A stretch of 64,000 nucleotides of DNA from an uncultured Acidobacteriota bacterium (GTDB taxonomy: Bacteria > Acidobacteriota > Vicinamibacteria > Vicinamibacterales > UBA2999): NCBI GenBank assembly GCA_963807105.1, contig CAWEAM010000010.1, forward strand, positions 324,773 through 388,772, read 5' to 3'. Of this stretch, positions 29,225 to 63,081 are shown piece by piece (the stretch's first letter is position 1; every line of letters starts with the position of its first letter). The notes under the pieces are model-generated. The model made no database searches, was not told the origin of the DNA, and worked only from the letters and a program-made list of their open reading frames with translations. The translations under genes were made by a program, and so were the position numbers.

Positions 29225-29234
29225 TTGTATACAA
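29225..29234. promoter_or_regulatory. GntR/MatR-type operator
   Basis: Perfect palindrome TTGTATACAA ~65 nt upstream of the amidase start. Confidence 0.7.
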
Positions 29235-29346
29235 GTCAACAGAATAGCCGGACGATTTGGCCGAATGCTGTATATTTTGGAAGCTCAGCCGACTCTTCCC
29301 ATGTCAGGGCAATGGCGGCGATTAGGCTGAGAAGCGACTTCTGGCT

Positions 29347-29830
29347 TTAGCGGGGAACGGCGTGAAGCATCGCCATCGGATCAGCGAATCGTTCGCCCTG
29401 TACGAGGACATGCTGACGCTGAAGATCCGGCGCCGAGCTCCGCCTCGCCGATCCTAGGGCCTTTACGATTTTCTCGTGCTCGGCGAAGGACGTCACGATG
29501 CGGTCGCGGACGCGCAGCTGTAGCCGCCGCTGCGGACGCAAGCGCTTGTGCAGCATCGAGGCCTGCTCGCTGAGAAACGAGTTATGGCTGCCGCTATAGA
29601 TGACCTGATGGAACTGCTCATTGCTTGAGTGGTACTCTTGTTTTGTCATCCGCCCCGCGGCAAGACGGCAACCAAGAGCCTCCAACCCGGCCATAACCTG
29701 AACCATTTTCTACCACTGGGCGGGGCGACACCTCTGGAACCGTGGCCCCACGCCGGGGACGCATCTCAACGCTGCCGACGGACGCCAACTGGATCAGCTC
29801 TTCATAGATAGGCGTCCGAGACCGCAAACT
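29347..29830 (-). pseudogene. GntR (FCD) regulator, decayed paralog of 42350-43096
   Basis: SRTPIYEELIQLAS.G.VEMRPRRGA, then IYSGSHNSFLSEQASMLHKRLRP.RRLQLRVRDR; frameshift and deletions. Confidence 0.8.
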
Positions 29831-30006
29831 GTTCTGCTAGTGCACTTTTCGTCGAGGCGGAACCCTTGGCGAAAGCTCACCGGTCGCGATTTTTTCTGCA
29901 ATCGTGTCGCGTAACTCGCCGGTTTGGATTCTTTTGTCGCCATTTTTGTATGCAACTAGGTGCGTCCACAATCTCGGCAAAGCCCAGCACCTCGAGGACC
30001 ATTTCT

Positions 30007-30315
30007 ATGGACCCCACACAGCTGACGGACTTCGCCACCCGCTATGCGGCAGCCTGGAGCAGTCAGAATCCAGGAAGTTTGGCGGCGTTCTACGCCGGGA
30101 ATGGATCACTCACCGTCAATGACGGTGAGCCGTCTGTCGGACGCGCGGCCATCACGGCGACGGCAAGGGGTTACATGACGGCATTTCCTGACATGGTCGT
30201 GAAGATGGACCGCGTGAGTCAGGAGGGCGGCCACGCGGTTTTTCATTGGACGTGGACAGGAACGAACAGCGGCCCTGGAGGCAGCGGCAAGTCTGTTCGC
30301 ATTAGCGGCTACGCC
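30007..30315 (+). pseudogene. SnoaL-like ester cyclase, 3'-truncated
   Basis: FATRYAAAWSSQNP, FHWTWTGTN.GPGG.GK.VRISGY, then similarity ends. Confidence 0.7.
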
Positions 30316-40885: not shown

Positions 40886-42331
40886 TCACTTGGCACTGAC
40901 GTGAGGAAGAACACGGGCTGAAGAGGCGGGCATCGACTGCCGGGCCAGGCGCTTCACCTGGCGAGAGGCGGCGATGCCATAGTTGTTTGCGTAGGCATCG
41001 TGATTCCGCTCGAGGTCAGCCAGGCGGTAGACGTAATTCACCATCAAGCCCAAGGAGCGACGAGTGCCAGTTTCGGACGTGTCGGCCATCCAATTCAGTC
41101 GTTGCAGGCAGGCGCCGTTCGCCAAGTGGAACCGCGCCACGGCGTCGACGGGGGCGCCTCCGAGCTTGGCTTCAATCAAGTAGTAGGCTCCCAACCGGAT
41201 GAGAGCATCCTTATGTCGCGTCATCAGACTTCGATCGAGCGGAACGTGATCCGCTCCAGTGCTTGTGACGAGCGCCACGAGTTCCTCGTGCGTTCTATCC
41301 GCCGGTGGTCGTTCGAAATAGTTCACCAACCACCTGGAGAAGCCGGGCATTGGCGAGAGCGTGGCGTACGTTCTGACGCGGGGCAAGCTTCTGCTGAGAT
41401 CGTCGACCACCTGCTTAATCAACAGATTACCGAAGGACACGCCACGCAGCCCCCGTAGACAGTTAGTGATTGAGTAGAAGATGGCGCACGTCGCCTGTGA
41501 TCGATCCAACACCTCAGAGTCGGGGTTGAGTAACGGCTGGACTCGAGCACTCATTCCGCGGGTCAGCGCCACTTCGATGAAAATCAACGGCTCTTCCGGA
41601 AGCGCCGGGTGGAAGAATGCGTAACAACGTCGATCAGCTTCCAGCCGGCGGCGCAGGTCGCCCCACCCTTGTATCTGGTGCACCGCTTCGAACTCGATCA
41701 GGCGCTCGAGAACCACCGCTGACGTCCGCCAATCAAGTCGCTGAAGCACGAGAAAGCCCCCGTTAAACCAGGACCTGAACAAGTGGAGGAAGTCGGCATC
41801 AATCGCGGTCCGCTCCGGGCAGTCCTCCAGGGTGGCGAGGAGATGGTTGCGCATCTCGATCAGCAGCCGGATCCCGCCGCGGGCGAGATTCAAGCGGCGG
41901 AAGAGCTCCTGACGCGGCGCCTCAACGGCCGTCTGAAGACCGGCAAGCGTCGACAGCGACGGCCGGGCGCGGTAGCTCTCTGCCTCACGCGCCACCCGTT
42001 CGGGATCCGGTGAAAAGCGACTGCCGAGCAGCTCGAAAAACTGATCGCGGCCTGGCGGCTCGAGCTTTTGATAGGAAGCGAATATCTCCGAAGCCAAACG
42101 TGCGCCGGCGACCTCGCCCCGCTCCGAGAGCAGCGAATCACAGATCGAGATGACCTGCTTGGCCGCGCGAATGTCAGCGCGTTCGGCGAAGGCGGGATCC
42201 GCGAAAGATCCGAAGATCCGGCGGAGCAGGGGACGACCTAAGCGATCCTTTGCGGCCGACGGGCGGGAGTGTGCATGAGGTGTCGATGGCGCCGCCTCCT
42301 CGATTCCGGCTTCGTTGCGTTGGTCGCGCAT
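40886..42331 (-). CDS. matA: Malonyl-CoA decarboxylase
   Basis: SERGE, PRQELFRRLN, SWFN.GFL, EAVHQI, FFHPALPEEPLIF, FYSITNC, SFGNLLIKQV, TLSPMPGF, VARFHLANGA. Confidence 0.95.
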   Translation of the reverse strand: MRDQRNEAGIEEAAPSTPHAHSRPSAAKDRLGRPLLRRIFGSFADPAFAERADIRAAKQVISICDSLLSERGEVAGARLASEIFASYQKLEPPGRDQFFELLGSRFSPDPERVAREAESYRARPSLSTLAGLQTAVEAPRQELFRRLNLARGGIRLLIEMRNHLLATLEDCPERTAIDADFLHLFRSWFNGGFLVLQRLDWRTSAVVLERLIEFEAVHQIQGWGDLRRRLEADRRCYAFFHPALPEEPLIFIEVALTRGMSARVQPLLNPDSEVLDRSQATCAIFYSITNCLRGLRGVSFGNLLIKQVVDDLSRSLPRVRTYATLSPMPGFSRWLVNYFERPPADRTHEELVALVTSTGADHVPLDRSLMTRHKDALIRLGAYYLIEAKLGGAPVDAVARFHLANGACLQRLNWMADTSETGTRRSLGLMVNYVYRLADLERNHDAYANNYGIAASRQVKRLARQSMPASSARVLPHVSAK

Positions 42332-43218: not shown

Positions 43219-43287
43219 TGACAACCCCGCGCGTTTGGTATACACGTGCGCCATAAGATAACACAAAATTGACCTTTTTGTACGCAC
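43219..43287. promoter_or_regulatory. AT-rich divergent promoter with MatR-like boxes
   Basis: TTGACA; TGGTATACAC (43236), TTGTACGCAC (43278). Confidence 0.55.
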
Positions 43288-46814: not shown

Positions 46815-46920
46815 TTGACAGGAACGCAAGCGCTGCTATACAACTTGTGCACACAAAATCGATAATATTGCACACACAGAATCGATATTGCACACACTAA
46901 GTTGGGCGAACAAATACAAA
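46815..46920. promoter_or_regulatory. Promoter with arrayed TGCACACA boxes (~20-nt period)
   Basis: TTGACA 46815; CTATACAA; GTGCACACAA 46847; TTGCACACAC 46868 and 46888. Confidence 0.65.
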
Positions 46921-48422: not shown

Positions 48423-50009
48423 GTGGACTTTGCTGACAGCCGGCTCCGTATCGAGCCCGATCGGAGCACGGACGCCATCGCGGCGCGCCGCGCGGGGCTC
48501 CTCTCGGGCGGAGGGCTGGATCGCATCGAAGCGCAGCACGCGCGAGGCAAGCTGACCGCACGCGAGCGCCTCCAGCGGCTGCTGGAACCCGAGTCGTTCG
48601 AGGAACTGGCGCCTTACATGCTGCCCCGTTCCTTGGGGGGCGCCGGAGTCGAACACCAGCGGTATCCCGGCGACGGCGTCGTGACCGGCTTCGGCTCGAT
48701 CGACGGGCGGCGGGTCGCCGTGTTCGCCCAGGACTTCACCGTCATGGGCGGATTCTTCTCGGAGACCCAGGCTCTGAAGATTGGACGCCTCATGGAGCTG
48801 GCGACCTCCGCCGGCGTCCCTATCGTGGCGCTGTTCGATTCCGTTGGCGCCCGCATCCAAGAAGGCGTCTGGAGCCTCGCTGGATTCGGCGACCTTTTCT
48901 GGCGCAACACCCAGGCGAGCGGCGTGGTGCCGCAGATCAGCCTCATGCTGGGGCCGTGCGCCGGCGGCGCCGTTTACTCTCCGGGCCTGACCGATTTCGT
49001 GTTGATGGTGCGGCGTCACAGCTACATGTTCATCACCGGTCCTGATGTCGTCCGCACTGTAACGGGCGAAGAGGTCAATCCGGACGCGCTCGGCGGCGCC
49101 GGCGTCCATGCGACGCGATCGGGTGTGGCCCACTTCGTGGCCGAGGACGAGCAAGCCGCGTTCGATTTGACTCGCCGCCTGCTGAGCTATTTGCCCTCGA
49201 ACAACGCGGACGATCCGCCCGCGCTTCCCGCCGATGGCTGTCTCGAGCCCGACACGAGCGCGCTGGATCGCCTCATTCCCGACCGTCCCGAGATCGCCTA
49301 CGACGTCCGGGAGGCTATTGGCCTGATCGCCGACCGCTACTCCTTTCTCGAGGTGCACGCCGAGTTTGCTGCGAACGCGGTGGTCGGCTTCGCACGCGTG
49401 CGCGGCTGCGTGGTGGCGTTCGTCGCCAACCAGCCCTCGCATCTCGCGGGCGTCCTGGACATCGATGCCTCGGACAAGATAGCGAGGTTCGTCCGGTTCG
49501 CCGACGCGTTCAACATCCCAATCGTGACGCTCGTCGACTGTCCGGGGTTTCTGCCAGGCACGGGTCAGGAGTACGGCGGCATCATCCGGCACGGCGCCAA
49601 GATCGTCTATGCGTTCGCTGAGGCCACCGTGCCGAAAATATCGATCGTGCTGCGGAAGGCCTACGGAGGGGCGTACATCGTGATGAGCAGCAAGACGACG
49701 CGGACCGACGTCTGCTTCGCGTGGCCGACCGCCGAAATCGCGGTCATGGGACCGAAGGGCGCGGTGAGCGTGCTGTATGCGCGGCGGCTGTCCTTGATGG
49801 CCCCGGAGTCGCGTGAGGCCGAACAGGCGCGACTGGAGCGCGAGTTCCGGGACCGCTTCAATTCCCCGTTCGTCGCGGCTGAAGCCGGCCACATCGACGA
49901 TGTGATTTACCCGCGCGAGACGCGGTCGCGCGTGGCAGCGGCGCTCCACTTCTTGAAAGACAAACAGGGAAGTGCGCTGCCCCGGAAGCACGGGAACATT
50001 CCGCTGTAG
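48423..50009 (+). CDS. Acyl-CoA carboxyltransferase (MmdA/PccB-like), decarboxylase alpha subunit
   Basis: GKLTARER, QDFTVMGG, GARIQEG, GPCAGGAVYSP, PGFLPG, RKAYGGAY, KHGNIPL. Confidence 0.95.
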   Translation: MDFADSRLRIEPDRSTDAIAARRAGLLSGGGLDRIEAQHARGKLTARERLQRLLEPESFEELAPYMLPRSLGGAGVEHQRYPGDGVVTGFGSIDGRRVAVFAQDFTVMGGFFSETQALKIGRLMELATSAGVPIVALFDSVGARIQEGVWSLAGFGDLFWRNTQASGVVPQISLMLGPCAGGAVYSPGLTDFVLMVRRHSYMFITGPDVVRTVTGEEVNPDALGGAGVHATRSGVAHFVAEDEQAAFDLTRRLLSYLPSNNADDPPALPADGCLEPDTSALDRLIPDRPEIAYDVREAIGLIADRYSFLEVHAEFAANAVVGFARVRGCVVAFVANQPSHLAGVLDIDASDKIARFVRFADAFNIPIVTLVDCPGFLPGTGQEYGGIIRHGAKIVYAFAEATVPKISIVLRKAYGGAYIVMSSKTTRTDVCFAWPTAEIAVMGPKGAVSVLYARRLSLMAPESREAEQARLEREFRDRFNSPFVAAEAGHIDDVIYPRETRSRVAAALHFLKDKQGSALPRKHGNIPL

Positions 50010-50018
50010 GCCGCGCTG

Positions 50019-50375
50019 ATGGCGTCCGACCTGACGACCGTTTTGTGGATCAGCGCCGTCGGCGCGGCGGTTCTCTTCGCGGCGTTCGCAGCCCTGGTCG
50101 GCCTCATCTACCTGCTGACGACACCGTGGCCGATCCCGATGCTGCGATCCACCGCGAAGCCACGACGGGCGCGACTGAGCGCCCCTGAACCTCCTGCTAC
50201 CGACGAGAACGAGCGCGAGCGGCGCAGGCGCGCGGCGGCGCTTGCAGCAGCGATCGCCAGCGCCGACGCTATCCGGCACGCCGTGAAATCGCCTGATGGA
50301 CTATCCGCGTGGAAGCTGGTGCACCGCTCACGGTGGACGGCGCGCCCCGCACCGCTGAGGACGTTCAGATCGTGA
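50019..50375 (+). CDS. OadG/MmdD-like membrane subunit
   Basis: Single N-terminal TM, Pro linker, AAALAAAIA, SAWK; position in the operon. Confidence 0.75.
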   Translation: MASDLTTVLWISAVGAAVLFAAFAALVGLIYLLTTPWPIPMLRSTAKPRRARLSAPEPPATDENERERRRRAAALAAAIASADAIRHAVKSPDGLSAWKLVHRSRWTARPAPLRTFRS

Positions 50376-50818
50376 GGCGATTTCGGGTCACCATCGACGG
50401 ACGGGAGTATGACGTCGAGATCGACGACCCCTCGGCGCGCCCCGTTATCGCGCGCGTGTCAGGTGAAGTCTTCCGAGTCCAGGTTTCAGTTCAGGATGGA
50501 GCGGGCGCGCGGGCGCCCGCGCAACCCGAGCCGACCGCCGCGCCGGCGCCGACAGCCAGTTCGAGCAACGCCGCCGCCGCCCTAAGGAGCCCCAACGGCG
50601 ACCACGCGTTGATGGCTCCGATGCCCGGCACGATCCTGTCCCTCATGGCGACGGTCGGACAGGCCGTCCAGCGCGGCGACGAACTGCTGACCATCGAAGC
50701 GATGAAGATGTTCAACGTGATTCGGGCCCCATGGTCGGGCAGAGTCGCCCAGGTGCACGTCACCGAAGGCAAGGTCGTGTCCCACGGCGATCTGTTGGTG
50801 ACGCTCGCCTCGAGTTAG
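50372..50818 (+). CDS. Biotin carboxyl carrier (MmdC-like)
   Basis: FRVTIDGREYDVEI, Ala/Pro linker, APMPG, EAMKM. Confidence 0.92.
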   Translation: MRRFRVTIDGREYDVEIDDPSARPVIARVSGEVFRVQVSVQDGAGARAPAQPEPTAAPAPTASSSNAAAALRSPNGDHALMAPMPGTILSLMATVGQAVQRGDELLTIEAMKMFNVIRAPWSGRVAQVHVTEGKVVSHGDLLVTLASS

Positions 50819-50825
50819 ACACTCA

Positions 50826-51926
50826 ATGGCCGACTCCATCAGCGCGGGGATGCTTGTCATGTTCGCGGTCGGCGGCGTCCTCATCTACTTGGCCATCGCC
50901 CGTGAGTACGAGCCGGCGCTCCTGCTCCCGATTGGATTTGGCACCCTGCTCGGCAATCTACCAAACTCACCGCTCAACGAGCCCGGCGGCATGTTGTATT
51001 TGCTCAACGAGTTCGGTATCAAGACCGAGCTCTTCCCGCTGTTCATCTTCATCGGGATTGGCGCGCTGATGGACTTTCGCCCGCTCCTGTCGCAGCCGGT
51101 GTTCGCGCTGCTGGGCGCGGCAGGTCAGCTCGGCATCTTCGCGACGCTCGTCCTCGCCACGGTCCTGGCCTTTCCGCTCAACGAAGCGGCCTCGATTGCC
51201 GTCATTGGCGCGATCGACGGGCCCACCAGCATCTATGTCACGTCGGTTCTTGCTCCGGACCTCGTGGCGCCGATTGCCGTCGCAGCGTACTCCTACATGA
51301 GCCTGGTGCCCATCATTCAGCCGCCCATCATGCGTCTGCTCACGACGTCGGCGGAGCGCCGCATCCGCATGGAGTACACGCCGCGGCCGGTGCCGGCAGG
51401 CGCCGTCATCGCATTTCCCATTGTCGTGACCCTTGTGCTCGGTGTCCTCGTTCCGAAATCGGCACCGCTCGTCGCGACCTTGATGCTTGGCAACCTGTTG
51501 AAAGAGGCGCGCGTCGTTCCCCGTTTGTCAAACAGCGCTGCCAACGAGCTGACCAACGTCACGACGCTCTTCCTCGGCCTGACGATCGGCAGTCTGATGC
51601 AGGCCAGCACCTTCCTGCAGGCGCAGACGCTCGCCATCCTGGCGCTCGGCCTGGCTGCGTTCGGGCTCGACACCGTCGCCGGGATCCTGTTCGGCAAGGC
51701 GCTCGCCGCGGTCATGAAAGGCCGGATCAATCCATTGGTCGGGGCGGCCGGCATCAGCGCGTTTCCGATGAGTGGGCGGTTGGTTCAAAGGGTTGCGCAG
51801 GAGGAGGACTTCACGAACCACGTGTTGATGCACGCCATGGCAGCGAACACGGCCGGCCAGCTCGGGTCCGTGATCGCGGGCGGGGTACTGCTTGCCCTGG
51901 TGACGGGCCTGCTCGGGTCGCCGTGA
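50826..51926 (+). CDS. Na+-translocating decarboxylase beta subunit (OadB/MmdB family)
   Basis: EPALLLPIGFG, GAAGQLGIF, IGAIDGPT, AYSYMSLVP, GISAFPMS. Confidence 0.95.
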   Translation: MADSISAGMLVMFAVGGVLIYLAIAREYEPALLLPIGFGTLLGNLPNSPLNEPGGMLYLLNEFGIKTELFPLFIFIGIGALMDFRPLLSQPVFALLGAAGQLGIFATLVLATVLAFPLNEAASIAVIGAIDGPTSIYVTSVLAPDLVAPIAVAAYSYMSLVPIIQPPIMRLLTTSAERRIRMEYTPRPVPAGAVIAFPIVVTLVLGVLVPKSAPLVATLMLGNLLKEARVVPRLSNSAANELTNVTTLFLGLTIGSLMQASTFLQAQTLAILALGLAAFGLDTVAGILFGKALAAVMKGRINPLVGAAGISAFPMSGRLVQRVAQEEDFTNHVLMHAMAANTAGQLGSVIAGGVLLALVTGLLGSP

Positions 51927-52271: not shown

Positions 52272-53768
52272 ATGCATCGCGCGACCAGGGCGCCGTGTCT
52301 GATCGTCACTCTCTGCCTGCTCTGGGCTGCCGCGTGTTCCCGGACGGTCGAGAGCCAGGCGGCGGCAACCGGCGCACTGGCCTTCGAGGGAGCTCGGCTG
52401 ATCATCGGGGACGGCAGTCCGCCCATCGAGAACTCCGCCTTCGTCGTCGAGAACGCTCGCTTCATCCGTGTCGGCCGCCGCGGTGAGGTCGAGGTGCCGG
52501 CTGGCGCGGCCCGGATCGACCTGACGGGCAAGACAGTCATGCCGACAAAGGTCGATGTTCACGGCCACCTCGGCTTCGAGGAAGTCGTGGCCGGGACCAC
52601 CGCGAAAGAGAACTTCACGCGCGCGAATCTGATCGATCACCTCGAGCGGTTCGCGTACATGGGATTCAGCGGCGTCATCAGCATCGCGGATCTCGTCGAA
52701 CGCGAGATCATGCCGGGCGATCACCTGGACGTCTATCAGGCGCCACGGAATCCTCAGCTGCCGAAGACCGGGAGGCATCCCTGGGGCGACGTCCCGCTGC
52801 TGGCGCGCAACGAAATCTTCCCCAACGCAGCGCTCTTTCGCACGGCGGGCCCCGGGATCGCCACGCCTGGCGGCGGCGCGGGCGGGCATCCTTCAAGAAA
52901 CGACGTGATGTATCCGGTGACGACACCTGAAGAAGCGCGGAGCGCGGTGCGCGACTACGTCAAGTCGAAGCCCGAGTTCGTCAAGATTTGGGTGGACGAC
53001 AGGGGCGGCAAGGTCAAGACGCTGACGCCGCCGCTGTATCGGGCGGTTATCGACGAAGCGACCAGGCTCAACTTCCCGGTGGCCGCGCACACGGTCACCC
53101 TGGCGGACGCAAAGGAGCTTTACAAGGCCGGCCTCGTAGGCGCCGTCCACATTCCCGTGCGCGGCGGTGATGTCCCGGATGACGAACTGCTCACGATCAT
53201 CAGGGATCGCGTTGCGAAGAGTCGATGGCCGCTCTGGTTCAGCGAACCCGGAAATTCTGCGGCGCTGGGCGCGCAAGCCTGGGAGGACCCGCTGCTGTCC
53301 GAGATCCTGTCGCCGGACCAGGTCCAGAAGCACCAGCAGGACGCTAAGCGACTGACGCCGGAGGTGGTCGAGCGTGCCCGACGCAGTTCAGAAGCGACAG
53401 GGGATGCGGCGCGGATGCTGATGCGCGCGGGCATGAAGCTCGTGTACGGCAGCGACAACGGATCGGCGGGACGAGGGTTCGGGTGGTACGAGCAGCTGCG
53501 GTTCGAGAACTGGGTGACGATGGGCTTCACGCCTGCCGAGGCGATTGTGATGGCCACGCGCGATTCGGCCGACATCGCGGGCCTCAACACCGGAATGGTG
53601 GCTTCGGGCAGGAGCGCTGACTTCATCGTCCTCGACGCCAACCCGCTCGAAGACCTCGCCAACACGCGGCGAATCAACAAGGTCTATCTGAGAGGCCAGG
53701 AAGTCGACCGCGCGGGGATGCGGGCGCGATGGCAGGCCAGGTGGCGTACCACGACTTCGACGCCTTGA
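52272..53768 (+). CDS. Amidohydrolase-family lipoprotein
   Basis: AGGAGG RBS, LLWAAAC, VDVHGHLG, FVKIWVDDR, VAAH, YGSDNG, ADFIVLDANPL. Confidence 0.88.
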   Translation: MHRATRAPCLIVTLCLLWAAACSRTVESQAAATGALAFEGARLIIGDGSPPIENSAFVVENARFIRVGRRGEVEVPAGAARIDLTGKTVMPTKVDVHGHLGFEEVVAGTTAKENFTRANLIDHLERFAYMGFSGVISIADLVEREIMPGDHLDVYQAPRNPQLPKTGRHPWGDVPLLARNEIFPNAALFRTAGPGIATPGGGAGGHPSRNDVMYPVTTPEEARSAVRDYVKSKPEFVKIWVDDRGGKVKTLTPPLYRAVIDEATRLNFPVAAHTVTLADAKELYKAGLVGAVHIPVRGGDVPDDELLTIIRDRVAKSRWPLWFSEPGNSAALGAQAWEDPLLSEILSPDQVQKHQQDAKRLTPEVVERARRSSEATGDAARMLMRAGMKLVYGSDNGSAGRGFGWYEQLRFENWVTMGFTPAEAIVMATRDSADIAGLNTGMVASGRSADFIVLDANPLEDLANTRRINKVYLRGQEVDRAGMRARWQARWRTTTSTP

Positions 53769-53879: not shown

Positions 53880-55604
53880 ATGCGGCGGCGCACACATCTC
53901 ATCCGGGCGGTATGGTTCGTCGTTGCCTTGGGACCGGTAATTCTGACCTCCGCGCATCCTGTCAGGGTGCGGGCTCAGGCGGCATCCGACCGAACGGCGG
54001 TTGGCACTCGCACGGACAGTCGACTGGGAGGGCCGTACGGCTCAGTGAAAACCGTGTTGCGCGGCCAGGAACAGCCCGTCGACGGCCTGATGCTGCAGTT
54101 GATCTCGAAACGGACATCCATTAGAACGACGGTGTACACGAATGAGCTCGGCCACTTCGATTTTCCCAGGCTCGAGAGCGGCGAGTACGTGCTGCGGATC
54201 CCCCGGCCGATGGAGTTTCGCCGCTATCAGGTGGATCCGGTTCGTATCGACGGCGCCACCAAGCTCCCCGACATCGTCGTGGAGCGCGTGAGCGAGGGGC
54301 TGTTCCTGCCGCCGACGAAGGAGGTTCTCGCCCAGCTGAGCGGAGCGGAGTGGCTGGCCAATATGCCGGGCACCGCCCAGGAAAAGCGGCTCTTCACGAA
54401 CAGCTGCACGAACAGCTGCCACAGTGGGGAGCGGCCGTTCATGGTCAAGTTCGACAAAGCGGGCTGGGAGAAGATCGTCGCCCGCATGACCAATTACAGT
54501 CACCGCGTCCTGACCCAGCCATCGGAGCGGACGGAGCTGACACCCAACGCGAAGATCATCGCCAACTGGCTCGCGACCGTGCGCGGGCCCGAGTCCGAGT
54601 ACCCACCGATCGAGCCGTTTCCTCGCCCCGCTGGCCTGGCCACGCGCGCCATAGTCACCGAGTATGAACTCCCCTGGGCGATGACCAACATCCACGACAT
54701 CGCAGGCGACGCCGAGGGCAACGTCTGGTTCAACGTCAATCGCAGCCCGTTCGTCGGGAGGCTCGACCCGAAGACCGGCAAGATCGTCACCTACCGGATG
54801 CCCGAGCCTGATCGGCCGCCGAAGGTCAAACCCTACATCGACAAGTACACCGACCCGCCAGGCATTCACCCCGGGCAGCACGGCCTGTTCATAGACAAGA
54901 ACAGCGGCTACGTTTACAGCACGGGCACCTGGCATCGGAGCATTACGAGAATCGATCCTCGAACGGGTGATATGAAGGCCGTGATGACGGATCTGACCCA
55001 GAACGGCAACATGGCCCTTCATCCCGACGGCAAATCCATCTGGAGGACCGACCAGCGCAAGATCAAGAAATATGACCTGCCGGGCGTGTTCGAGACCGGC
55101 CTGCCTGTCCAGACATGGGATCTCAAGAACGTCAACAACACCTACGGCAACTTCATGAGTCGCGACGGCCGATACTTCGGCGGCGGGGGAAGTTGGATCG
55201 TGTGGCTCGACACTCAGACCGGCGAGCTTCGGGAGATTCCTCTCGCCATCGGCGGGGCGCGTGGGCGCGGCTCGTTCGACGCGGAGGGCAACATCTGGTC
55301 GGGCGCCCAGAAGCTGACCAAGTACGAGCCGAAGACGGGCGCCGTCACGCAATACACGCCGCCAACGCCGTACTACCATTCGTACTCGGCGCAGGTTGAC
55401 AAGAACGGCGACGTCTGGTCGGGACAGCAGCAGGGCGGGCGAATCGGGCGCTTCAACCCGAAGACCGGATTGTGGATCGAATACGTGCTGCCGTCGCCGT
55501 GGAGCTTCGACTACATGTCGTTCATCGACAACTCGACCAATCCGCCGACGTTCTGGTACGGCGATCAGCATGGCTATATCGTTCGGCTACAGCCGCTCGA
55601 CTAG
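53880..55604 (+). CDS. Exported carboxypeptidase-regulatory + c-type heme-like (CxxxCH) + Vgb-like beta-propeller protein
   Basis: Signal peptide, TTVYTNELGHF, CTNSCH, TEYELP, HDIAGDAEGNVWF, repeats RLDPKTG. Confidence 0.8.
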   Translation: MRRRTHLIRAVWFVVALGPVILTSAHPVRVRAQAASDRTAVGTRTDSRLGGPYGSVKTVLRGQEQPVDGLMLQLISKRTSIRTTVYTNELGHFDFPRLESGEYVLRIPRPMEFRRYQVDPVRIDGATKLPDIVVERVSEGLFLPPTKEVLAQLSGAEWLANMPGTAQEKRLFTNSCTNSCHSGERPFMVKFDKAGWEKIVARMTNYSHRVLTQPSERTELTPNAKIIANWLATVRGPESEYPPIEPFPRPAGLATRAIVTEYELPWAMTNIHDIAGDAEGNVWFNVNRSPFVGRLDPKTGKIVTYRMPEPDRPPKVKPYIDKYTDPPGIHPGQHGLFIDKNSGYVYSTGTWHRSITRIDPRTGDMKAVMTDLTQNGNMALHPDGKSIWRTDQRKIKKYDLPGVFETGLPVQTWDLKNVNNTYGNFMSRDGRYFGGGGSWIVWLDTQTGELREIPLAIGGARGRGSFDAEGNIWSGAQKLTKYEPKTGAVTQYTPPTPYYHSYSAQVDKNGDVWSGQQQGGRIGRFNPKTGLWIEYVLPSPWSFDYMSFIDNSTNPPTFWYGDQHGYIVRLQPLD

Positions 55605-55637: not shown

Positions 55638-56165
55638 ATGAAGCTCTCGACCTGGGTGAACGCGATGGTTGCGCTGCTACTGGTTGTGGGCGTGGGCCAA
55701 GGCGTTAGTCTCAGTGACGCACACCAGGCACGCGCTGCCGAGGCTGCGGACTCCCAACGTCCGGCGGAGCCAGCGAAGGCTCCGCCTCGGGAAGAGGGGG
55801 TCGACCCCTACGAGCGCAATGCGACGTTGTGGGCGTCGCACCGAGCGGGTGCGACGAGTGGCTGGCAGCGGGGGCAGGAGCTCTATTACATGAAGTGCTG
55901 GATGTGCCACAGCGAGTACGTGATTGTCGCCGATCCCTCGCCGGCTCCGTCGCTGAGACACGTGGCCAAGCGGTTGACCGACGAGCAGATCGCAATGTAC
56001 GTCCGCAACGGGACGGCCAGGATGCCCGCGTATCGATTCCAGCTATCCGATGCCGATATCAACGATCTGCTTGCACTGTTCAAGGAGAAATGCGGCACGT
56101 TTCCGACCGGTGGTGGCTGCTTCGATGAGCACAATCCGCCACGGAATCCTCTCTATCGCTATTAG
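55638..56165 (+). CDS. Monoheme cytochrome c
   Basis: Signal peptide, GQELYYMKCWMCH, RMPAY, LSDADINDL. Confidence 0.9.
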   Translation: MKLSTWVNAMVALLLVVGVGQGVSLSDAHQARAAEAADSQRPAEPAKAPPREEGVDPYERNATLWASHRAGATSGWQRGQELYYMKCWMCHSEYVIVADPSPAPSLRHVAKRLTDEQIAMYVRNGTARMPAYRFQLSDADINDLLALFKEKCGTFPTGGGCFDEHNPPRNPLYRY

Positions 56166-56234: not shown

Positions 56235-58733
56235 GTGACGGCCGTCCGGAGGATCCGTCCTTCACCTGTGCCCACGCCCGTGGCCCGTCAGGACTCCCGC
56301 CTCAGACGCGGCTCCGTCGAGCCGCCGGTCTCGCTGCCGGCGGCGCACACCACCTGCTCCAGCGCCGGACCCGCAAGCCGGCGCTGGAGCCTTCCCGTCC
56401 TCGCTGCCTTGTTCTTCGTCTCCGGCATCAGCGCCCTCATTTATCAGGTGCTCTGGCTTCGAATGCTGGCGCTGATCTTCGGCGTGACGGTGCACGCCGC
56501 CGGCGCTGTGCTCGCGAGTTTCATGGCGGGCCTTGCCCTCGGAAACTACGGCGGCGGTCGCGTGGCCGACCGCGCTCGGCGTCCACTGCTCATGTTCGGC
56601 GGGGTGGAAGTGATGATCGGCGTATGCGCCCTAGTAACGCCAGCTGCCCTCGAACTGGTCAAGCGGCTGTACGTCGGCCTGCACGAAGTGCTCGGCGACG
56701 GACTGCCACTGCTCACGATCGCGCGCCTTCTCTTCACGTTCATGGTGCTGCTCGTCCCCACCGCGCTAATTGGCGCGACGCTGCCACTCCTCGTTCGGTC
56801 GCTGGCCGCCAGCGGGAAGCGCTTTGGCACGCACGTGAGCCTTCTCTACGGGACCAACACGGCCGGGGCCGTGGCCGGCGTGCTGCTGGCCGGCTTCACC
56901 CTGATCCCCAACCTCGGAATCGCCGCGTCGTTCTGGGTAGGAGCGCTTCTGAATGGAGCCGTGGGTGTGGCGGCCATCGTGATGGGCCTTGCGCTGGAAT
57001 CACCCCGCAGCCTCATCGCAACGAAGCCACCGCTCGCTGATCCTCTTCCTTCGAGCATCACACATGCGACACCCGGACTTGCGATTTCTGACGGGACACG
57101 CCGGTTCGTGCTGCTCGTCTTCGGGTTGTCGGGCTTCGCGTCCCTCGCCCTCGAGGTCATCTGGTTTCGAGTGCTCGTGATCTTCCTGGGTCCGACGACC
57201 TACGCGTTCAGCATCATGCTTGCAACGGTGCTAGCCGGCATCGCTCTCGGCAGTGCGCTCGTGACTCCGTGGTTCACTCGGCACATTGATTGGCTGGCTG
57301 TGCTGGCCGTGGTCCAGGTCGGGATCGCGGTGTCGGCGCTGCTGTCGTTCTGGGCCCTGAGCTTCATGCCGCCGGCCGCAGCATACGTCGAGGCTTCGGC
57401 GCAGACCCCGTCCGGCATCGAGTACCTCGGCCCCGTGATCATCGGCAGCGTTCTGGCGATCCTGCCTGCGTCACTTCTGCTCGGGGTGGCTTTCCCGATC
57501 GGTGCGCGGCTCTGGGCTGACGACGATGCCGACGGTCACCAGGTCGCCGGCCGCGTCGGGATCTTCTGCGCGGTCAACGTCTGCGGGGCCATTGTCGGCC
57601 CGCTGGCCGCGGCATTCTGGCTGCTGCCGGCGCTCGGCAGCCGCCGCAGCCTGATTAGCATTGGTGGCGTGGCGATGGCATCGGCGTTCCTGCTGCTGAT
57701 CCGGCTTGCTCACCGGCGACCGCGCTTTGCGGTCGCCACGGCAATGGCTGGCGCGATAGCGTTTGTCGTAGCCGCCGGCCGAGTCGGGCCTGCCTTCGAC
57801 CTCGCCCTCGCCCGCGTGTACGGGTCGGAGCAACTGCTCTGGCACGAGGAAGGCGTGCAAACGACCGTCAAGGTCAACGCGCGTCGTGGGCCCGACGGTA
57901 GGCCCATGCGCATCTTGTATGTCGACGGGTGGCATCAGGCGAACGACTCGGGGGCGACGCTCTTTCTCGATCGTCTGATAGGCGTGCTGCCAATGGCGCT
58001 GCACCAAGACCCACGCCGCGCGCTGGTGATCGGCTTGGGGGGTGGAGCGACGCCGGGCGCGATTGCGCGGTTTCCCGGCACTCACGTCACGGTCGTCGAG
58101 CTGTCGCCCTCGGTCGTGCGCGCCGCCAACCGGTGGTTCGCTCATACAAATTTCGACTTGCTTCAACGGCCGAACGCCACTCTCCGCATCGACGACGGGC
58201 GCAACTACCTGCTGCTGACGGACGAGCGGTACGACGTCATCACGGCCGACGTGATTGTTCCGCGTCACTCCGGCTCGGCCAACCTGTACTCGACCGAGTA
58301 CTTCGAATTGACCCGCCGCGCACTCGCGCCAGGTGGCTTGATGCTCCAGTGGATCCCGGATGACACCGATCTCGAGTACCGAACGATCATGCGAACGTTC
58401 GTCGGCGTGTTTCCGAATGCCACACTCTGGGCGAACGGCAGCCTGCTGGTGGGATCCCAAGGTCCCCTTCACATCAGTCGCGCGGGCTTCGAACGGCGCC
58501 TGGCGGATTGGCCGACGCGCGTATCGCTCGAGCTTGCGGGAATCTCGAGCTTCGAGATGCTGTTGTTGCTCTACGACGCCGGTCCCGACGAACTGCGTAA
58601 ATACGTGGGCAGCGGCCCGATACTGACCGACGACCGCCCCGTCGTCGAATACTTTCTGTCGTCGCAGCATGAACGACGGGTGGTCGAGGCCGCAGAACTC
58701 AAGGGCGACGTCATGCGCCATATCAGGCCGTAG
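56235..58733 (+). CDS. Fused membrane domain / spermidine synthase-like protein
   Basis: SGISALIYQVLW and SGFASLALEVIW TM repeats; ALVIGLGGG, VVELS, DDGRNYL, YDVITAD, TDDRPVVEY; start uncertain. Confidence 0.88.
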   Translation: MTAVRRIRPSPVPTPVARQDSRLRRGSVEPPVSLPAAHTTCSSAGPASRRWSLPVLAALFFVSGISALIYQVLWLRMLALIFGVTVHAAGAVLASFMAGLALGNYGGGRVADRARRPLLMFGGVEVMIGVCALVTPAALELVKRLYVGLHEVLGDGLPLLTIARLLFTFMVLLVPTALIGATLPLLVRSLAASGKRFGTHVSLLYGTNTAGAVAGVLLAGFTLIPNLGIAASFWVGALLNGAVGVAAIVMGLALESPRSLIATKPPLADPLPSSITHATPGLAISDGTRRFVLLVFGLSGFASLALEVIWFRVLVIFLGPTTYAFSIMLATVLAGIALGSALVTPWFTRHIDWLAVLAVVQVGIAVSALLSFWALSFMPPAAAYVEASAQTPSGIEYLGPVIIGSVLAILPASLLLGVAFPIGARLWADDDADGHQVAGRVGIFCAVNVCGAIVGPLAAAFWLLPALGSRRSLISIGGVAMASAFLLLIRLAHRRPRFAVATAMAGAIAFVVAAGRVGPAFDLALARVYGSEQLLWHEEGVQTTVKVNARRGPDGRPMRILYVDGWHQANDSGATLFLDRLIGVLPMALHQDPRRALVIGLGGGATPGAIARFPGTHVTVVELSPSVVRAANRWFAHTNFDLLQRPNATLRIDDGRNYLLLTDERYDVITADVIVPRHSGSANLYSTEYFELTRRALAPGGLMLQWIPDDTDLEYRTIMRTFVGVFPNATLWANGSLLVGSQGPLHISRAGFERRLADWPTRVSLELAGISSFEMLLLLYDAGPDELRKYVGSGPILTDDRPVVEYFLSSQHERRVVEAAELKGDVMRHIRP

Positions 58734-58832: not shown

Positions 58833-59657
58833 ATGGAGGTCAGAGTGCACGACGGCCTTTGGTCCCGGCGGTTAGGCCTGAAACGTGCCGTCCTTGTCAT
58901 CCTCACCGGCACCATGGTCGCGGCAAGCGCCGGAAGCCAGGAGCGCCCGCGAACGTCCCTCGGCGCGGGCGCGCAGATCGTCGAGGATCTCGTGCTGGCC
59001 AACCGAATCCTCACCAATGAGGGCGTCGTCGATGGGCTCGGACACGTCAGTGCACGTCACGACCAGCGAGCCGATCGATTTCTCCTCTCGCGCGCCGTGC
59101 CGCCAGCGCTCGTCGTGGCGGACGACGTGATGGAGTACGACTTCGATGGCAACCCAATGGAACAACCGGGTCGGTCGATGTATGGGGAGCGGTTCATTCA
59201 TGCAGCGATCTACCGGGCGCGGCCTGATGTGAAAGCGATTGTCCATTGCCACACGCCTTCGGTTCTTCCGTTCGCCAATTCCAACGTGCAGCTGCGGCCG
59301 ATCTATCAGATGAGCGCGTTCCTGGCGTCCGGCGCACCGGTCTTCGAGATTCGGCGCGTGGAGGGTGCGCGGGGCATGCTCGTGAGCAGCATGGCTACCG
59401 GCCACGCGTTGGCCCGGACCCTTGCGGACAAGGCCGTCGTCCTGATGCGGGGCCATGGAGCCGTCCTCGTCGGCGAGACGGTGGCCGAGGCGGTCAGCCG
59501 CACCATTCATCTCGATATCAGCGCAAAGATGCAGGCGCAGTCCATTGCCTTGGGCGGAACCGCCAGGTACCTCGAAGCCGAGGACCTGCCGGCCGCCGAG
59601 GGCAATCCGTATGGGCGTCTCTGGGAGCACTGGAAGCAGCGGCTGCCGAGCAGGTAA
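58833..59657 (+). CDS. Class II aldolase/adducin family protein with signal-peptide-like N-terminus
   Basis: GHVSAR, ERFIHAAIY, VHCHT, LMRGHG. Confidence 0.9.
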   Translation: MEVRVHDGLWSRRLGLKRAVLVILTGTMVAASAGSQERPRTSLGAGAQIVEDLVLANRILTNEGVVDGLGHVSARHDQRADRFLLSRAVPPALVVADDVMEYDFDGNPMEQPGRSMYGERFIHAAIYRARPDVKAIVHCHTPSVLPFANSNVQLRPIYQMSAFLASGAPVFEIRRVEGARGMLVSSMATGHALARTLADKAVVLMRGHGAVLVGETVAEAVSRTIHLDISAKMQAQSIALGGTARYLEAEDLPAAEGNPYGRLWEHWKQRLPSR

Positions 59658-59704: not shown

Positions 59705-59740
59705 CCGGCCCGCGCGGGTTGGGAATCCTCGGCGGGCCGG
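59705..59740. terminator. Hairpin between convergent genes
   Basis: CCGGCCCGC...GCGGGCCGG. Confidence 0.55.
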
Positions 59741-59768
59741 AAATATCTTCGGAGTTGAACGCGATCAT

Positions 59769-62720
59769 CTAGAAGTCATACAAGACATTGAACTCGACCA
59801 GCCGACCCCGCAGGATGCTTGTGACCCGGCCGAAGCTCGACCCAGATGCGGTTGCTACTCCTGTCACGGTGTTCGCGTTGAACATGTTGAAGAGGTTCAT
59901 GCGCAGCGCCATGCTATTCGCTCCCCCAAGCCGCAGCCGCTTTTCAACGCGGAAGTCCGTCAGATGGACCGTTGGTAGTTGATGGGCATCGCGCGGCTCC
60001 ACGCGAAGTGTGATCGAGGGAATTGTGACGCCGCCGCGGAACACAGCCGTTCGCGCATAGTAGCCCCCGCTCCGGGCCTGGTAGTTCGCCGAGAGCTGAA
60101 TGTCCCACCAGGGTGTCATGTAGCTCCCCGAGATTCGCCCTTGCCACTCGCTCGTGTTGTCGGCCGCGAAGATCTCCGCATTCGGGTCCTTGGTGTTGGC
60201 CTCGAACGCTCCCACGGCCCCGGAGGCCGTATTGGGTGGGAGCGGGTCGTCGAGCTTCGTGTAGCTGAAGGAGCCCTGCAGAGACCAGCGGTTGGCGAGC
60301 CGCCGGGTCGCCGCGATCTCGAACGAGGTGTACTCCTTGTTGGCCGCCGGGTCGTTGACGATCCACGGCGCCTGAAAGGCGTTCCCGCGCAGCGCCACCG
60401 GATACTCGAAATAAGTGATTGACGTCCCCGGATCATCTGCGTTGCCTCGGATGTTGTCAGGGCCCGGATCGGGGTTCGTAATTGGAATCGTGTAGCTTTC
60501 ATACGGCCGCAGGGTGTTCTCGTACCGGTACCAGTTCAGCACGCGCGAGTGAATGCCCGTGAGCCGCACGGCGAAGCCCTGCATCACCTCCCGCTCGAAC
60601 TGCGCCATGTATTCGTCGGTATAGGCCTGCGTTTCGTCCGGATTGACGATCCCATTCGCCAGGGCCGCGCCCTGGCCCGTGAAAGTCGTGCTCTGGAAGT
60701 CACACACCACGCCAGGACCGGCCACGCAGTTCGGATCCAGGTTGACCTCACCGTCATCGTACTCACGGTTGCCGTTGAGGTCGCGCCATGTGTAGACCGT
60801 TGTGTTGATGACGTTCCGGTTCGCCGTGTTGATCTCCTCGAACCAGCGCCCCTTCATATAGCGCCCCCAGCCGGCCTTAAGCAGTGTCCGGCCGTCGCCC
60901 GTGAAGTCGTAGGCAAAGCGCAGGCGCGGCGCGAGCGAGTGGTAGATCGGGAACTGGATATCCGGGTAGCACTGGGCGGGGTTTGCAATGTGCCCCGGCG
61001 GGTTTGCCGCCTCTCGGCACACCTCCGGCACCTTCCCGTCGTCATACGCGTAGCGGACCCCCAGGTTGAGCGTCAGCCTTTGGCCCAGCGTCCACGTGTC
61101 GTGGATGTAGGGGGCAACATAGAGGAGCCGCCCCGTTGGCGCCACCGGCGTGTTCTGGACTTCGATGATGTCGGAAACGCTGCTCGCGAAGACGAGCTCG
61201 TAGGTGGGCGCCTTCCGGTCTATGCGGGCGCGGTTCCCCTCCGAGTGAAAGTAGTCCGCACCCATCTTGAAGGTGTGACTGCCTCCCACCCAATCCGGTT
61301 TGTACCAGTTCAGTCCCCAGCGCACGTTGTGCCGGAACACGTGTTGCCGCTCGTTCATGTCGGGCCGGGTGCCCCACGCGTAGCCCGTGATCCGATCCCG
61401 GGCCGGCGTCGCACCGTCGGCGAACTCTTCGCCCCACCCGCCGGAGCGGTTCACCCAAAGGCCATACATCAACGACATCGAGCGCGTGTCCCCCTGGATG
61501 GACTGCCATTCCGTCTTCACCGTCGGGCTGAAGGCGTTCCACTGCTTCCGGCGCCGCTCCCACGCGACGAACTGAGTCGCACCCTCGTTGTCGCGCCGGA
61601 AAATCGCGGTCATCATGCCGTTCACAGTATTCGAGGGATTGATCTTGAGAGTCTCCTTGGTGGTGATATACCCGGCGCGCTGCCACTCGAAGCACTGCTC
61701 GCCGGCCGGCTGGAGGGCTGGGCCCGTAAAGGGCGGCTCCCGCTGGAAGCAGTCCTGCGTGAGCGTCCGGTCCCGCTGCAGACGTCCCATGCCGAAGAAC
61801 CAGAGCTTGTCGCGAAGAATCGGCCCTCCCACCTCGCCACTGTAGTCGTCCTTCAGGTCGAGCTCATCGGGGGCCCCGACGCCCTGCGCCTCGAGCTCCG
61901 GCGTGAGATTGTTGCTCTGAAAGGTCTGGTTCGTGTAGCCGACGAAGACGCGACCATGAAAATTGTTGCTGCCGCCCTTGACGACGCTGTTGATCATGAT
62001 GCCGCGCGTTGGGATCGACGCATCGTGCCCTAGCGTCGAGATCGCCGCCTCCTCGAACGCCGTGAAGTCGATGTACTGGCCCGTCTGGCTCAACAGCGGG
62101 CTCGTGGTCACTACCCCGTCGAACGTCTGGTAGGCCTGGTTGCTTTGTCCGAACGCCCGGAACACCGGGTTGCTGGTGGGCGACAACGCTTGGATGCCCT
62201 CCCGCACCCCAGGCGCCTGGGCCAGGATGGCGTTGTAGCCAGTCCGCGGCGTCGGGATCACATCGAGCGTCTCGCGCGTCAGCGTCGTCGTGGCGGCCGA
62301 GGACGTTACGTCCACCACCGGCGACAACCCGGAGACCGTCACCGTTTCCTCGAGCCCGCCGACGCCCATCGTTACATCGAGCCGGGCCGTCAGGCCGGCA
62401 GTCAGGCGCACCCCCTCGCGCCGCACCGTGCGGAAACCCTGGAGTTCGAACTCCAGTACGTAGGTCCCGATGGGCAACGGCGTCAGGCGATACCGGCCCT
62501 CCGCGTCGCTCACCGCTGTGCGCGATCCCTGCAGGGTCGGGCTCGTCGCCGTCACAGTGACGCCAGGAATAAGGCTCTGGCTCTCATCCGTCACGGTGCC
62601 AATGACGCTCGCCTCTGTCAATTGACCGGCGGTTGCTCGGCTGGTTCCCACGAGTGCTGCGAGCACAACGAGCACCGCTCCGACACTCCGCCGCCATCCG
62701 TAGACACGGCTCGAACCCAT
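59769..62720 (-). CDS. TonB-dependent receptor
   Basis: GGAGG RBS, signal peptide, IGTVTDES, LPIGTY, APRLRFAYD, ends LYDF. Confidence 0.92.
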   Translation of the reverse strand: MGSSRVYGWRRSVGAVLVVLAALVGTSRATAGQLTEASVIGTVTDESQSLIPGVTVTATSPTLQGSRTAVSDAEGRYRLTPLPIGTYVLEFELQGFRTVRREGVRLTAGLTARLDVTMGVGGLEETVTVSGLSPVVDVTSSAATTTLTRETLDVIPTPRTGYNAILAQAPGVREGIQALSPTSNPVFRAFGQSNQAYQTFDGVVTTSPLLSQTGQYIDFTAFEEAAISTLGHDASIPTRGIMINSVVKGGSNNFHGRVFVGYTNQTFQSNNLTPELEAQGVGAPDELDLKDDYSGEVGGPILRDKLWFFGMGRLQRDRTLTQDCFQREPPFTGPALQPAGEQCFEWQRAGYITTKETLKINPSNTVNGMMTAIFRRDNEGATQFVAWERRRKQWNAFSPTVKTEWQSIQGDTRSMSLMYGLWVNRSGGWGEEFADGATPARDRITGYAWGTRPDMNERQHVFRHNVRWGLNWYKPDWVGGSHTFKMGADYFHSEGNRARIDRKAPTYELVFASSVSDIIEVQNTPVAPTGRLLYVAPYIHDTWTLGQRLTLNLGVRYAYDDGKVPEVCREAANPPGHIANPAQCYPDIQFPIYHSLAPRLRFAYDFTGDGRTLLKAGWGRYMKGRWFEEINTANRNVINTTVYTWRDLNGNREYDDGEVNLDPNCVAGPGVVCDFQSTTFTGQGAALANGIVNPDETQAYTDEYMAQFEREVMQGFAVRLTGIHSRVLNWYRYENTLRPYESYTIPITNPDPGPDNIRGNADDPGTSITYFEYPVALRGNAFQAPWIVNDPAANKEYTSFEIAATRRLANRWSLQGSFSYTKLDDPLPPNTASGAVGAFEANTKDPNAEIFAADNTSEWQGRISGSYMTPWWDIQLSANYQARSGGYYARTAVFRGGVTIPSITLRVEPRDAHQLPTVHLTDFRVEKRLRLGGANSMALRMNLFNMFNANTVTGVATASGSSFGRVTSILRGRLVEFNVLYDF

Positions 62721-62797
62721 GTTCACCTCCCAAACAGCGAGTGCTGAGGGCGTGGAGGCGCACAGTCCTGAGGCTGACCCGCGCACGCTCAGTATTT

Positions 62798-63081
62798 TTG
62801 CGTGCAAGCTAGCCATTTTTGTGCTCTTTGTCAATAGATTTGTAGACATACAGGTGTCAGACGTATATCGACGGCCCCGCCATGGTCATGCGACCGTACG
62901 ACGGCTAGCGCTCTCCGAGGCCGCGGTCCGCCCGGTGACCGCCAAACCGAACGCCACCACGCGAAGTTCGTTTTTGAATCCTTGAGCAGAGAGTGGATCA
63001 ATACTGGCAAGTTTTCACATACAAAAAGTGGCTGATTGCATACGAGTCGGCCTTGACAGTGCGCATATCGACATGTACAGT
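62798..63081. promoter_or_regulatory. Divergent promoters with MatR-like boxes
   Basis: TTGCGTGCAA 62798, TTGTAGACAT 62840, CACATACAA 63016, TTGCATACGA 63036, TTGACA (63053)-17-TACAGT. Confidence 0.62.

Follow-up and report, generated by a model that had tools for sequence, protein, structure and literature searches.

The closest described relatives of the system reported here are the malonate regulons governed by MdcY in Acinetobacter and MatR in Rhizobium (PMC4494728), which share with it a GntR/FCD regulator with the same recognition helix, palindromic operators of the TTGTATACAA type, in which two bases separate GT from AC and the same variants are tolerated, a site ahead of the regulator's own gene, and a link to malonate decarboxylation. 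In the part of the PMC4494728 supplement that was compared (62 of the 71 MdcY rows, given as locus tags only), most of these regulons cover the regulator's own gene plus one to three neighbouring operons. A second point of comparison is the dipicolinate regulon of DipR, in which one GntR/FadR repressor (PMC11472048) with a GTATAC operator core controls six promoters in a single nitrogen-compound catabolic cluster; DipR, whose sites were determined by electrophoretic mobility shift assay whereas those described here are predicted, belongs to a different regulator group (reported as 34-37% similar to MdcY/MatR), serves another substrate and is apparently not a malonate system. Here we describe a putative malonate-type regulon in a 64,000-nucleotide stretch of DNA (the window) from an uncultured Acidobacteriota bacterium of the order Vicinamibacterales. 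The window (contig CAWEAM010000010.1; G000:C10:324773-388772) belongs to a genome assembly, G000, of 8.0 Mb in 13 contigs that is 75% complete.

An initial annotation, made from the sequence of the window, had proposed a MatR-like regulon of ~35 kb that begins at 29225, has six promoter regions and ties uptake and exported amidohydrolases to malonate catabolism. We consider it very probable that the regulon is real. Its boundaries differ from those first drawn, as it spans 19.1-64.5 kb, has seven promoter regions, and is interrupted at 30.0-40.8 kb by an unrelated insert of ~11 kb. Unlike the MdcY/MatR regulons, it comprises ~10 transcription units over 45 kb, including genes for two TonB receptors and for about ten exported enzymes, and unlike matABC and mdc systems it has no MatB, MatC or Mdc, with a CaiB coenzyme A (CoA)-transferase and a biotin/Na+ decarboxylase in their likely place. 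The ~20 genes behind box-bearing promoters encode, as judged by family, uptake proteins of the outer membrane, exported enzymes and enzymes of malonate breakdown (Table 1).

The regulator, GntR2, is encoded next to matA and is assigned by orthology to the MdcY/MatR group. It shares 55-70% identity with its orthologues at 160 outside loci (L-labels), and malonate genes (mdcA, mdcD, matA or matB) stand at 113 of these, or at 93 of the 105 loci that extend over at least 12 kb. His145, His189, His211 and an arginine cluster in the effector domain are invariant in nine aligned regulators, including mdc- and matB-linked ones. In addition, SRTPVREALIQLAS is common to GntR2 and the helix-turn-helix tabulated for MdcY_DAR (PMC4494728), a match that was judged by eye. 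Predicted MdcY sites in the portion of that supplement compared include TTGCATACGA, TTGCACACAA, ATGCATACAA and ATGTATGCAA, the tabulated sites being predictions throughout, and box 63036 of the locus is identical to TTGCATACGA. The malonate assignment nevertheless rests on orthology and gene neighbourhood, not on the motif, because a GTATAC core is common to DipR, Atu1419, UxuR and B. subtilis GntR (PMC11472048). In a quick tree, in which one outgroup row is probably mis-cut and from which no donor is claimed, the five regulators of this order group with the metagenome locus L124 (Shimodaira-Hasegawa approximate likelihood-ratio test, 85). We regard L124 as weak support: its matA is a 57-residue remnant, and its CoA-transferase is 51% identical to that of G000, no closer than G000's own paralogues (49-50%). 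The second GntR paralogue noted in the initial annotation is present, but GntR1 is likely a pseudogene, because ~5 single-base indels in ~260 aligned bases plus in-frame stops far exceed the rate of 0.16 frameshifts per kb found in conserved genes of G000 (11 in 68 kb, with 9 of 60 such genes affected). The single frameshifts in the CoA-transferase, AH1 and PuuE2 genes match that background and are probably assembly errors. Only two FCD-domain matches occur in G000, GntR1 and GntR2, and a search with GntR2 likewise found only these two genes.

The operator-like boxes were evaluated with two counts, both of which used non-coding space from a self-trained gene mask that over-fragments genes and hence approximates the non-coding extent. 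First, TTGTATACAA with at most two mismatches has nine non-coding matches in 19.0-64.6 kb, where the remainder of the genome would predict 0.73, or 0.94 when the AT content of the flanks is matched (P = 7e-7). None of 2000 dinucleotide shuffles of ten intergenic stretches reached nine such matches, and the highest count in 1483 equal-size windows off the locus was six. The second count avoided circularity by using an independent matrix, obtained by de novo motif discovery in the upstream DNA of the first 80 outside loci (those from named genomes), which returned aTcTTGTATACAAgAt. At p = 1e-4 this matrix has 16 non-coding matches in the same interval against 0.88 expected, whereas 150 column-permuted palindromic matrices gave a mean of 1.6 and a maximum of 10. 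One site among the 16 is counted doubly (46845/46847), and three matches (32639, 38291, which sits between convergent genes, and 40700) are probably due to chance. All 10-mers named in the initial annotation are present where it placed them, and 10 of its 11 sites exceed the matrix cut-off score of 7.5, with 62798 falling short at 7.3; sites 20498, 46834 and 63015 were absent from its list. A consensus derived from those listed sites, KTGYRYRCAM (P = 1e-9), is circular and was not used as evidence.

The placement of the boxes relative to predicted promoters resembles that of repressor operators, most of the sites overlapping or adjoining -35/-10 elements. Specifically, box 62840 ends five bases before a minus-strand TTGACA and box 63036 ends seven bases before a plus-strand TTGACA, while the array at 46847-46897, with its 20-21-base spacing, lies just beyond the -10. 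Strict sigma70-like promoters have a box within 60 bases in three of three cases in the locus versus 3 of 90 elsewhere; a standard promoter scan of 43-53 kb gave one site against 1.4 expected, and the geometry is taken from a relaxed scan. Outside the locus, the top-scoring sites in the genome (C10:397385/397338, C13:514136 and C3:1319120) adjoin unrelated genes, and therefore no remote regulon member is proposed. The pair at G000:C10:397338 and 397385, 8.6 kb beyond the window, consists of two strong TGTATACA sites 47 bases apart that are nested in longer imperfect palindromes (TGTCCGAAAT...TTCGGACA), with no tie to the cluster found. An identical 16-mer, TTCGTGTGTAAAAAAA, which also scores as a box, recurs at nine places in G000 in either orientation (e.g. 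C9:483342, C3:1857333 and C13:440490) and is probably the end of a repeated element.

Comparison with other genomes (G-labels) indicates which of these genes travel with the regulator. Among 400 genomes of the order, 3 have a GntR2 orthologue, as does 1 of 118 genomes of family f4; the cluster was not found in the window's own family, where 0 of 140 genomes had its flavoprotein. We examined 75 kb of G454, a 62% complete genome of f4, which is another family than that of G000. It holds 11 of the 23 genes within 33 kb, rearranged and at 56-82% identity: GntR, matA, TonB62, AH3, TonB0, the flavoprotein, both PuuE-like genes, cytochrome c, the propeller and AH2; its amidase differs from that of G000 (27%). 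Because G454 interleaves genes of the left and right blocks of G000 in two box-headed operons, the first headed by a box triple with a 21-base period (42768, 42789 and 42810) and the second by two sites shared with GntR, the two blocks are one system. The proposed extension of the regulon is thereby upheld for the TonB receptors, amidohydrolases, PuuE-like enzymes, flavoprotein and heme propeller, but not for the Na+ pump, which was found only in G000: its beta subunit was searched in G454, G059, G273 and G258 without a match. The 75 kb of G454 contained no major facilitator superfamily (MFS) carrier, AH1, DUF4340 protein, CoA-transferase, pump, MFS/spermidine synthase or aldolase. Just beyond its GntR, on the opposite strand, are an oxalate/formate antiporter and an acyl-CoA ligase (G454:C7:65286-69861).

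Three further genomes, two of which (G059 and G273) belong to one genus, have significant box clusters before TonB or hydrolase genes near the orthologous regulator, with 5 boxes versus 1.03 expected in G059, 6 versus 0.91 in G273 and 5 versus 1.07 in G258. The G059 set consists of GntR, matA, an amidohydrolase without the strand-8 aspartate, TonB, a metallo-beta-lactamase fold protein, an aminotransferase, a flavin adenine dinucleotide (FAD) oxidoreductase and GGT; in G273, matA was not seen in the stretch examined. These two clusters (G059:C4:1938-1957 kb and G273:C19:204-221 kb) include a BhcA-like aminotransferase, a YdiJ/GlcD-like FAD oxidoreductase and a UxuA-like protein, and one may speculate that they point to aminomalonate or tartronate chemistry. 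The G258 set comprises GntR, mdc genes, MatC, a PF20091 hydrolase, TonB and sulfatases. Exported PF20091 alpha/beta hydrolases stand near a malonate GntR at G258:C12:9720-11849 and in 14 of the 160 outside loci (L024, L025, L026, L058, L081, L113, L120, L121, L122, L125, L133, L135, L153 and L169). In twelve of these 14, a box scoring at least 7.5 lies no more than 600 bases upstream, and some of these boxes also belong to the divergent promoter of GntR; L125 has three copies, and a tannase adjoins the gene in L026. The PF20091 proteins near the malonate GntR are a candidate malonyl esterase family. The boxes follow the regulator, because none of 25 AH3 relatives in other genomes has an upstream box (one more was dropped as its 5' end is incomplete). 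In family f4, MatA is found in 15 of 26 genomes with AH3 versus 18 of 92 others (p = 3e-4), and by genus in 12 of 18 versus 8 of 25 (p = 0.03).

Table 1. Genes and predicted operator sites of the locus, in window coordinates.
Feature	Position	Strand	Remarks
MFS transporter, anion:cation-symporter-like	19099..20412 (start approximate)	-	nearest model D-galactonate transporter, below cut-off
Operator-like box ATGTAGACAA	20498..20507		upstream of MFS gene; score 8.8
TonB0, TonB-dependent receptor	20677..23646	-	69-76% identity to G454
PuuE2, PuuE/allantoinase-like	23666..24560	-	one frameshift near 24350; no obvious signal peptide
PuuE1, PuuE-like	24560..25633	-	twin-arginine signal SRRSFL; 67% identity to G454
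Twin-arginine (Tat)-exported FAD oxidoreductase	25720..27396	-	flavocytochrome c family; 60-70% identity to G454
Amidase-signature enzyme, likely signal peptide	27623..29161	-	closest solved relatives are peptide amidases
Perfect box TTGTATACAA	29225..29234		overlaps -35 hexamer and spacer of predicted minus-strand promoter TTGACT-18-TAGAAA
GntR1, GntR2 paralogue, likely pseudogene	29347..29943	-	~5 single-base indels
Box TTGTATGCAA	29946..29955		2 bases upstream of GntR1 start codon
matA, malonyl-CoA decarboxylase	40886..42331	-	PF05292 (313 bits) and PF17408; 18 bases downstream of GntR2
GntR2, intact GntR/FCD regulator, MdcY/MatR group	42350..43096	-	PF00392 and PF07729
Boxes TGGTATACAC (43236) and TTGTACGCAC (43278)	43236..43287		divergent GntR2/AH1 region, before GntR2-matA; 43236 overlaps predicted -10
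AH1, amidohydrolase, likely signal peptide	43670..45206	+	strand-8 Asp replaced by Gly; one frameshift near 43830-43850
DUF4340 protein	45406..46752	-	divergent from CaiB CoA-transferase
Box array with TGCACACA at 46847, 46868 and 46888	46834..46897		46834 on predicted -10; the three others spaced 21 and 20 bases
Class III (CaiB) CoA-transferase	47105..48359	+	one frameshift near 47265
Na+-translocating decarboxylase, four genes	48423..51926	+	Pfam/NCBIfam
MmdA-like carboxyltransferase	48423-50009	+	Na+ pump alpha; 686 versus cut-off 999
Small membrane subunit of Na+ pump	50019-50375	+	assigned by position only
Biotin carrier of Na+ pump	to 50818	+	Pfam/NCBIfam
Beta subunit of Na+ pump	50826-51926	+	above cut-off
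Box GTGCATACAA	52001..52010		5 bases before TTGACA-17-TAGCTT
AH2, amidohydrolase, likely lipoprotein signal	52272..53768	+	strand-8 Asp kept; 67% identity to G454
Exported Vgb/SGL-type propeller	53880..55604	+	CX3CH (CTNSCH, same in G454); 66-82% identity to G454
Monoheme cytochrome c	55638..56165	+	CXXCH at residue 87; 67% identity to G454
Fused MFS/spermidine-synthase protein	56391..58733	+	not in examined G454 stretch
Class II aldolase-like protein, likely signal peptide	58833..59657	+	not in examined G454 stretch
TonB62, TonB-dependent receptor	59769..62720	-	67% identity to G454, 77% to G072; divergent from AH3
Boxes 62798, 62840 (TTGTAGACAT), 63015 and 63036	62798..63045		divergent TonB62/AH3 region
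AH3, amidohydrolase, likely signal peptide	63173..64000 (true end 64537, beyond window)	+	strand-8 Asp replaced by Gly

Families were assigned with Pfam and NCBIfam profiles, 39 window proteins being scanned; signal peptides were judged by eye, Tat motifs by pattern, and operon limits from gaps. The gene list of the initial annotation was borne out by these profiles, with changes for GntR1, the propeller, which has a CX3CH motif instead of CXXCH, and TonB33 (33042), which has no box (best score 1.7). In the left block the minus-strand order is amidase, Tat flavoprotein, Tat PuuE1, PuuE2 and TonB0, followed by the MFS carrier with its own box. The two PuuE-like proteins score 128 and 86 bits versus the TIGR03212 cut-off of 424.6, and are hence PuuE-like rather than allantoinase. 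The FAD oxidoreductase is rare, with 39 homologues at E<=1e-80 among 7995 scored. Malonamidase E2 was not among the 35 solved relatives of the amidase at E<=1e-20 and was dropped as a candidate. The middle block (SnoaL, ankyrin, TonB33, FmdA and helicase pieces) was rejected as part of the regulon, as TonB33 lacks a box and the 75 kb examined in G454 contain no orthologue; its segment at 38436-40914 is a fragmented Schlafen-group-3 helicase region (PF09848).

The reading that we favour, and which we hold to be evenly balanced between right and wrong, is that GntR2 acts as a malonate-released repressor of the seven promoter regions, whose genes would import N-malonyl amides, release malonate from them outside the cytoplasm and degrade it; that the substrate is, more broadly, a malonate-yielding nitrogen compound is probable. 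GntR2 would bind TTGTATACAA-like operators between 20.5 and 63.0 kb and let go with malonate. The compound would enter through TonB0 and TonB62, receptors by family with a proposed cargo, and AH2, AH3, AH1, the amidase and the PuuE-like pair, whose families are assigned and whose reaction is proposed, would cut a C-N bond, most likely in N-malonyl amides. The flavoprotein, heme propeller and cytochrome c may oxidize the other half of the molecule. The MFS carrier would then take malonate in, the CaiB CoA-transferase would form malonyl-CoA, and MatA, whose chemistry is established, would convert it to acetyl-CoA and CO2, here perhaps together with the biotin/Na+ pump. By analogy with MatR/MdcY, the freed malonate would induce the whole set.

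The CoA-transferase likely activates malonate, because MatB was not found in G000; MdcA was not found either, a positive control for that search having been run, and the assembly is 75% complete. The pump resembles the Na+-translocating methylmalonyl-CoA and malonate decarboxylases of Veillonella, Propionigenium and Malonomonas (PMC8085960) in that the genes for a carboxyltransferase, a biotin carrier, a putative small membrane subunit and a beta subunit follow one another; it differs in lacking a malonate acyl-carrier system and in its partner, a class III CoA-transferase that shares with it an operator array of the malonate type. Against the pump models the beta subunit scores above cut-off and alpha and gamma below. 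G000 also encodes a second Na+-decarboxylase beta subunit (C1:552860; 56%) and a second carboxyltransferase (C5:560739; 58%).

The hydrolytic step depends in part on two unusual enzymes. The strand-8 aspartate of amidohydrolases of this subgroup acts as a general base. Among proteins of solved structure, AH1 and AH3 stand closest to the Cc2672 carboxypeptidase and to ochratoxin amidohydrolases (3mtw, 8ihq), which share the fold and the HxH, Lys, His, His ligands; Cc2672 has GTDAG at strand 8, whereas AH1 and AH3 have glycine there. A predicted model of AH3 (predicted local distance difference test, 82) confirms the fold, with template modelling scores of 0.76/0.85 to 3mtw. At least 7365 AH3 homologues were found at E<=1e-60, the close ones labelled e.g. 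Vicinamibacterales or Acidobacteria. In the best 120, which were inspected for the strand-8 residue, the metal-site residues H102, H104, K215, H265 and H285 (four histidines and the carboxylated-lysine position) are kept in 120 of 120, and Gly351 (GSGA) replaces the aspartate in all of them, as glycine does in AH1 and the G059/G273 enzymes. Among 15 AH3-like segments in G000, G-S-G occurs only in AH1 and AH3. Other acids, D221, D281, D309, D310 and D318, are invariant in AH3 homologues, and either one of these may substitute for the aspartate, or the chemistry may differ, or the substrate may supply a carboxylate, as a malonyl amide might. The three exported amidohydrolases of the initial annotation are thus retained as families, but their cleavage of amides is not assured, because two of the three lack the aspartate; amide hydrolysis by AH1 and AH3 is doubtful, and AH2 keeps the residue.

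Several observations weigh against N-malonyl amides as the substrate, or against so broad a malonate regulon. The aspartate absent from AH1 and AH3 is a metal ligand in this subgroup (PMC5636949), and the redox enzymes are superfluous for simple de-malonylation. The motif by itself does not imply malonate, given the GTATAC core of other GntR groups, and G000 is incomplete. In G454, matA has no box and lies ~10 kb from TonB62, and box enrichment over the whole cluster is not significant (4 versus 1.78, P = 0.10). The enzyme sets of G059/G273 and G258 differ from those of G000/G454. An AH3-TonB62-AH2 trio occurs in G072, G243, G481 and G484 without a regulator orthologue, boxes or malonate genes in the flanks examined. 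Kinship and genome size inflate the test of AH3-MatA co-occurrence, and neither MatA nor MdcA was found, with a positive control run, in 11 of the 26 AH3 genomes, four of which are 96-100% complete; this speaks against tying AH3 strictly to malonate.

The trio, the 11 genomes and the differing enzyme sets lend themselves to an alternative that is unlikely yet has a real chance of being right, namely that the regulon is real and malonate is a mere cue, e.g. of plant material, the repressor having captured scavenging modules with non-malonate substrates. G000 has ~70 TonB-receptor-like and ~20 amidase-like loci, and such neighbours are therefore common. However, the same 11 genes have stayed together with GntR and matA in both families although their order has changed, the two paralogues without the aspartate among the 15 AH3-like segments compared in G000 both lie within the regulon, and AH3 and MatA co-occur. 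A second alternative, quite unlikely, is that the substrate is a nitrogen-containing ring with a malonyl unit, of the barbiturate or pyrimidine type, which the redox trio oxidizes and the PuuE-like pair opens before the amidases complete its conversion to malonate or methylmalonate. In favour of this reading, PuuE1 has the allantoinase PuuE as its closest named relative of solved structure, and a Terrarubrum plasmid carries, near rutA, a related PuuE-like gene that has a tandem partner; moreover, the redox genes are kept in G454, and a thymine-derived product would be in keeping with a pump of the methylmalonyl-CoA type. The oxidative pyrimidine pathway is the barbiturase route, with barbiturase and uracil/thymine dehydrogenase; the 39 window proteins scanned include no barbiturase, molybdenum hydroxylase or uracil/thymine dehydrogenase family, the remainder of the genome not having been searched, and PuuE-like pairs occur on two other plasmids in unrelated contexts and not near the regulator in G059, G273 or G258. 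Finally, it is very improbable that promoter elements or chance matches in AT-rich DNA account for the weaker boxes, or that another GntR, encoded in the unassembled part of G000, reads them, leaving a patchwork island with only GntR2-matA under GntR2: boxes 43236 and 46834 overlap -10 hexamers, the three chance matches of similar score have no apparent regulated promoter, the assembly is incomplete, and the left block has a lower GC content (0.59 versus 0.64) and its own decayed regulator, but the enrichment holds under AT matching, shuffling and permuted matrices, boxes occur at only 3 of 90 comparable promoters elsewhere and accompany the regulator across genomes, and the GntR2 search of G000 gave only the two genes in the window.

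The locus is likely a variant of the known malonate regulon, with a route for harvesting malonate from N-linked compounds that is likely undescribed. No such cluster is described in the literature searched (titles and abstract openings), in which the microbial fate of plant and fungal N-malonyl conjugates is also little described; further members in primary MdcY papers could lower this novelty. N-malonyl amides such as MACC and HPMA are produced by plants and fungi (PMC4227472, PMC4726666). Malonate regulons are known as small uptake-and-decarboxylation units, and here malonate is tied to two TonB receptors and ~10 uncharacterized exported enzymes. The set includes a rare flavoprotein family and the amidohydrolase subfamily without the aspartate, and so offers a substrate handle on uncharacterized families in a poorly cultured group. 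A bolder proposal, which is tentative and on balance improbable, is that the locus serves malonyl-conjugate utilization, that the large AH1/AH3 subfamily exchanged aspartate for glycine because the malonyl carboxylate of the substrate sits at the metal (substrate-assisted catalysis), and that PF20091 is its ester counterpart. If this were true, N-malonyl conjugates of plant and fungal origin, such as MACC, N-malonyl-D-amino acids and malonamic acids, would be stripped by Acidobacteria in the periplasm, and the exported PF20091 hydrolases behind the same box in Proteobacteria would do for esters what AH1 and AH3 do for amides.

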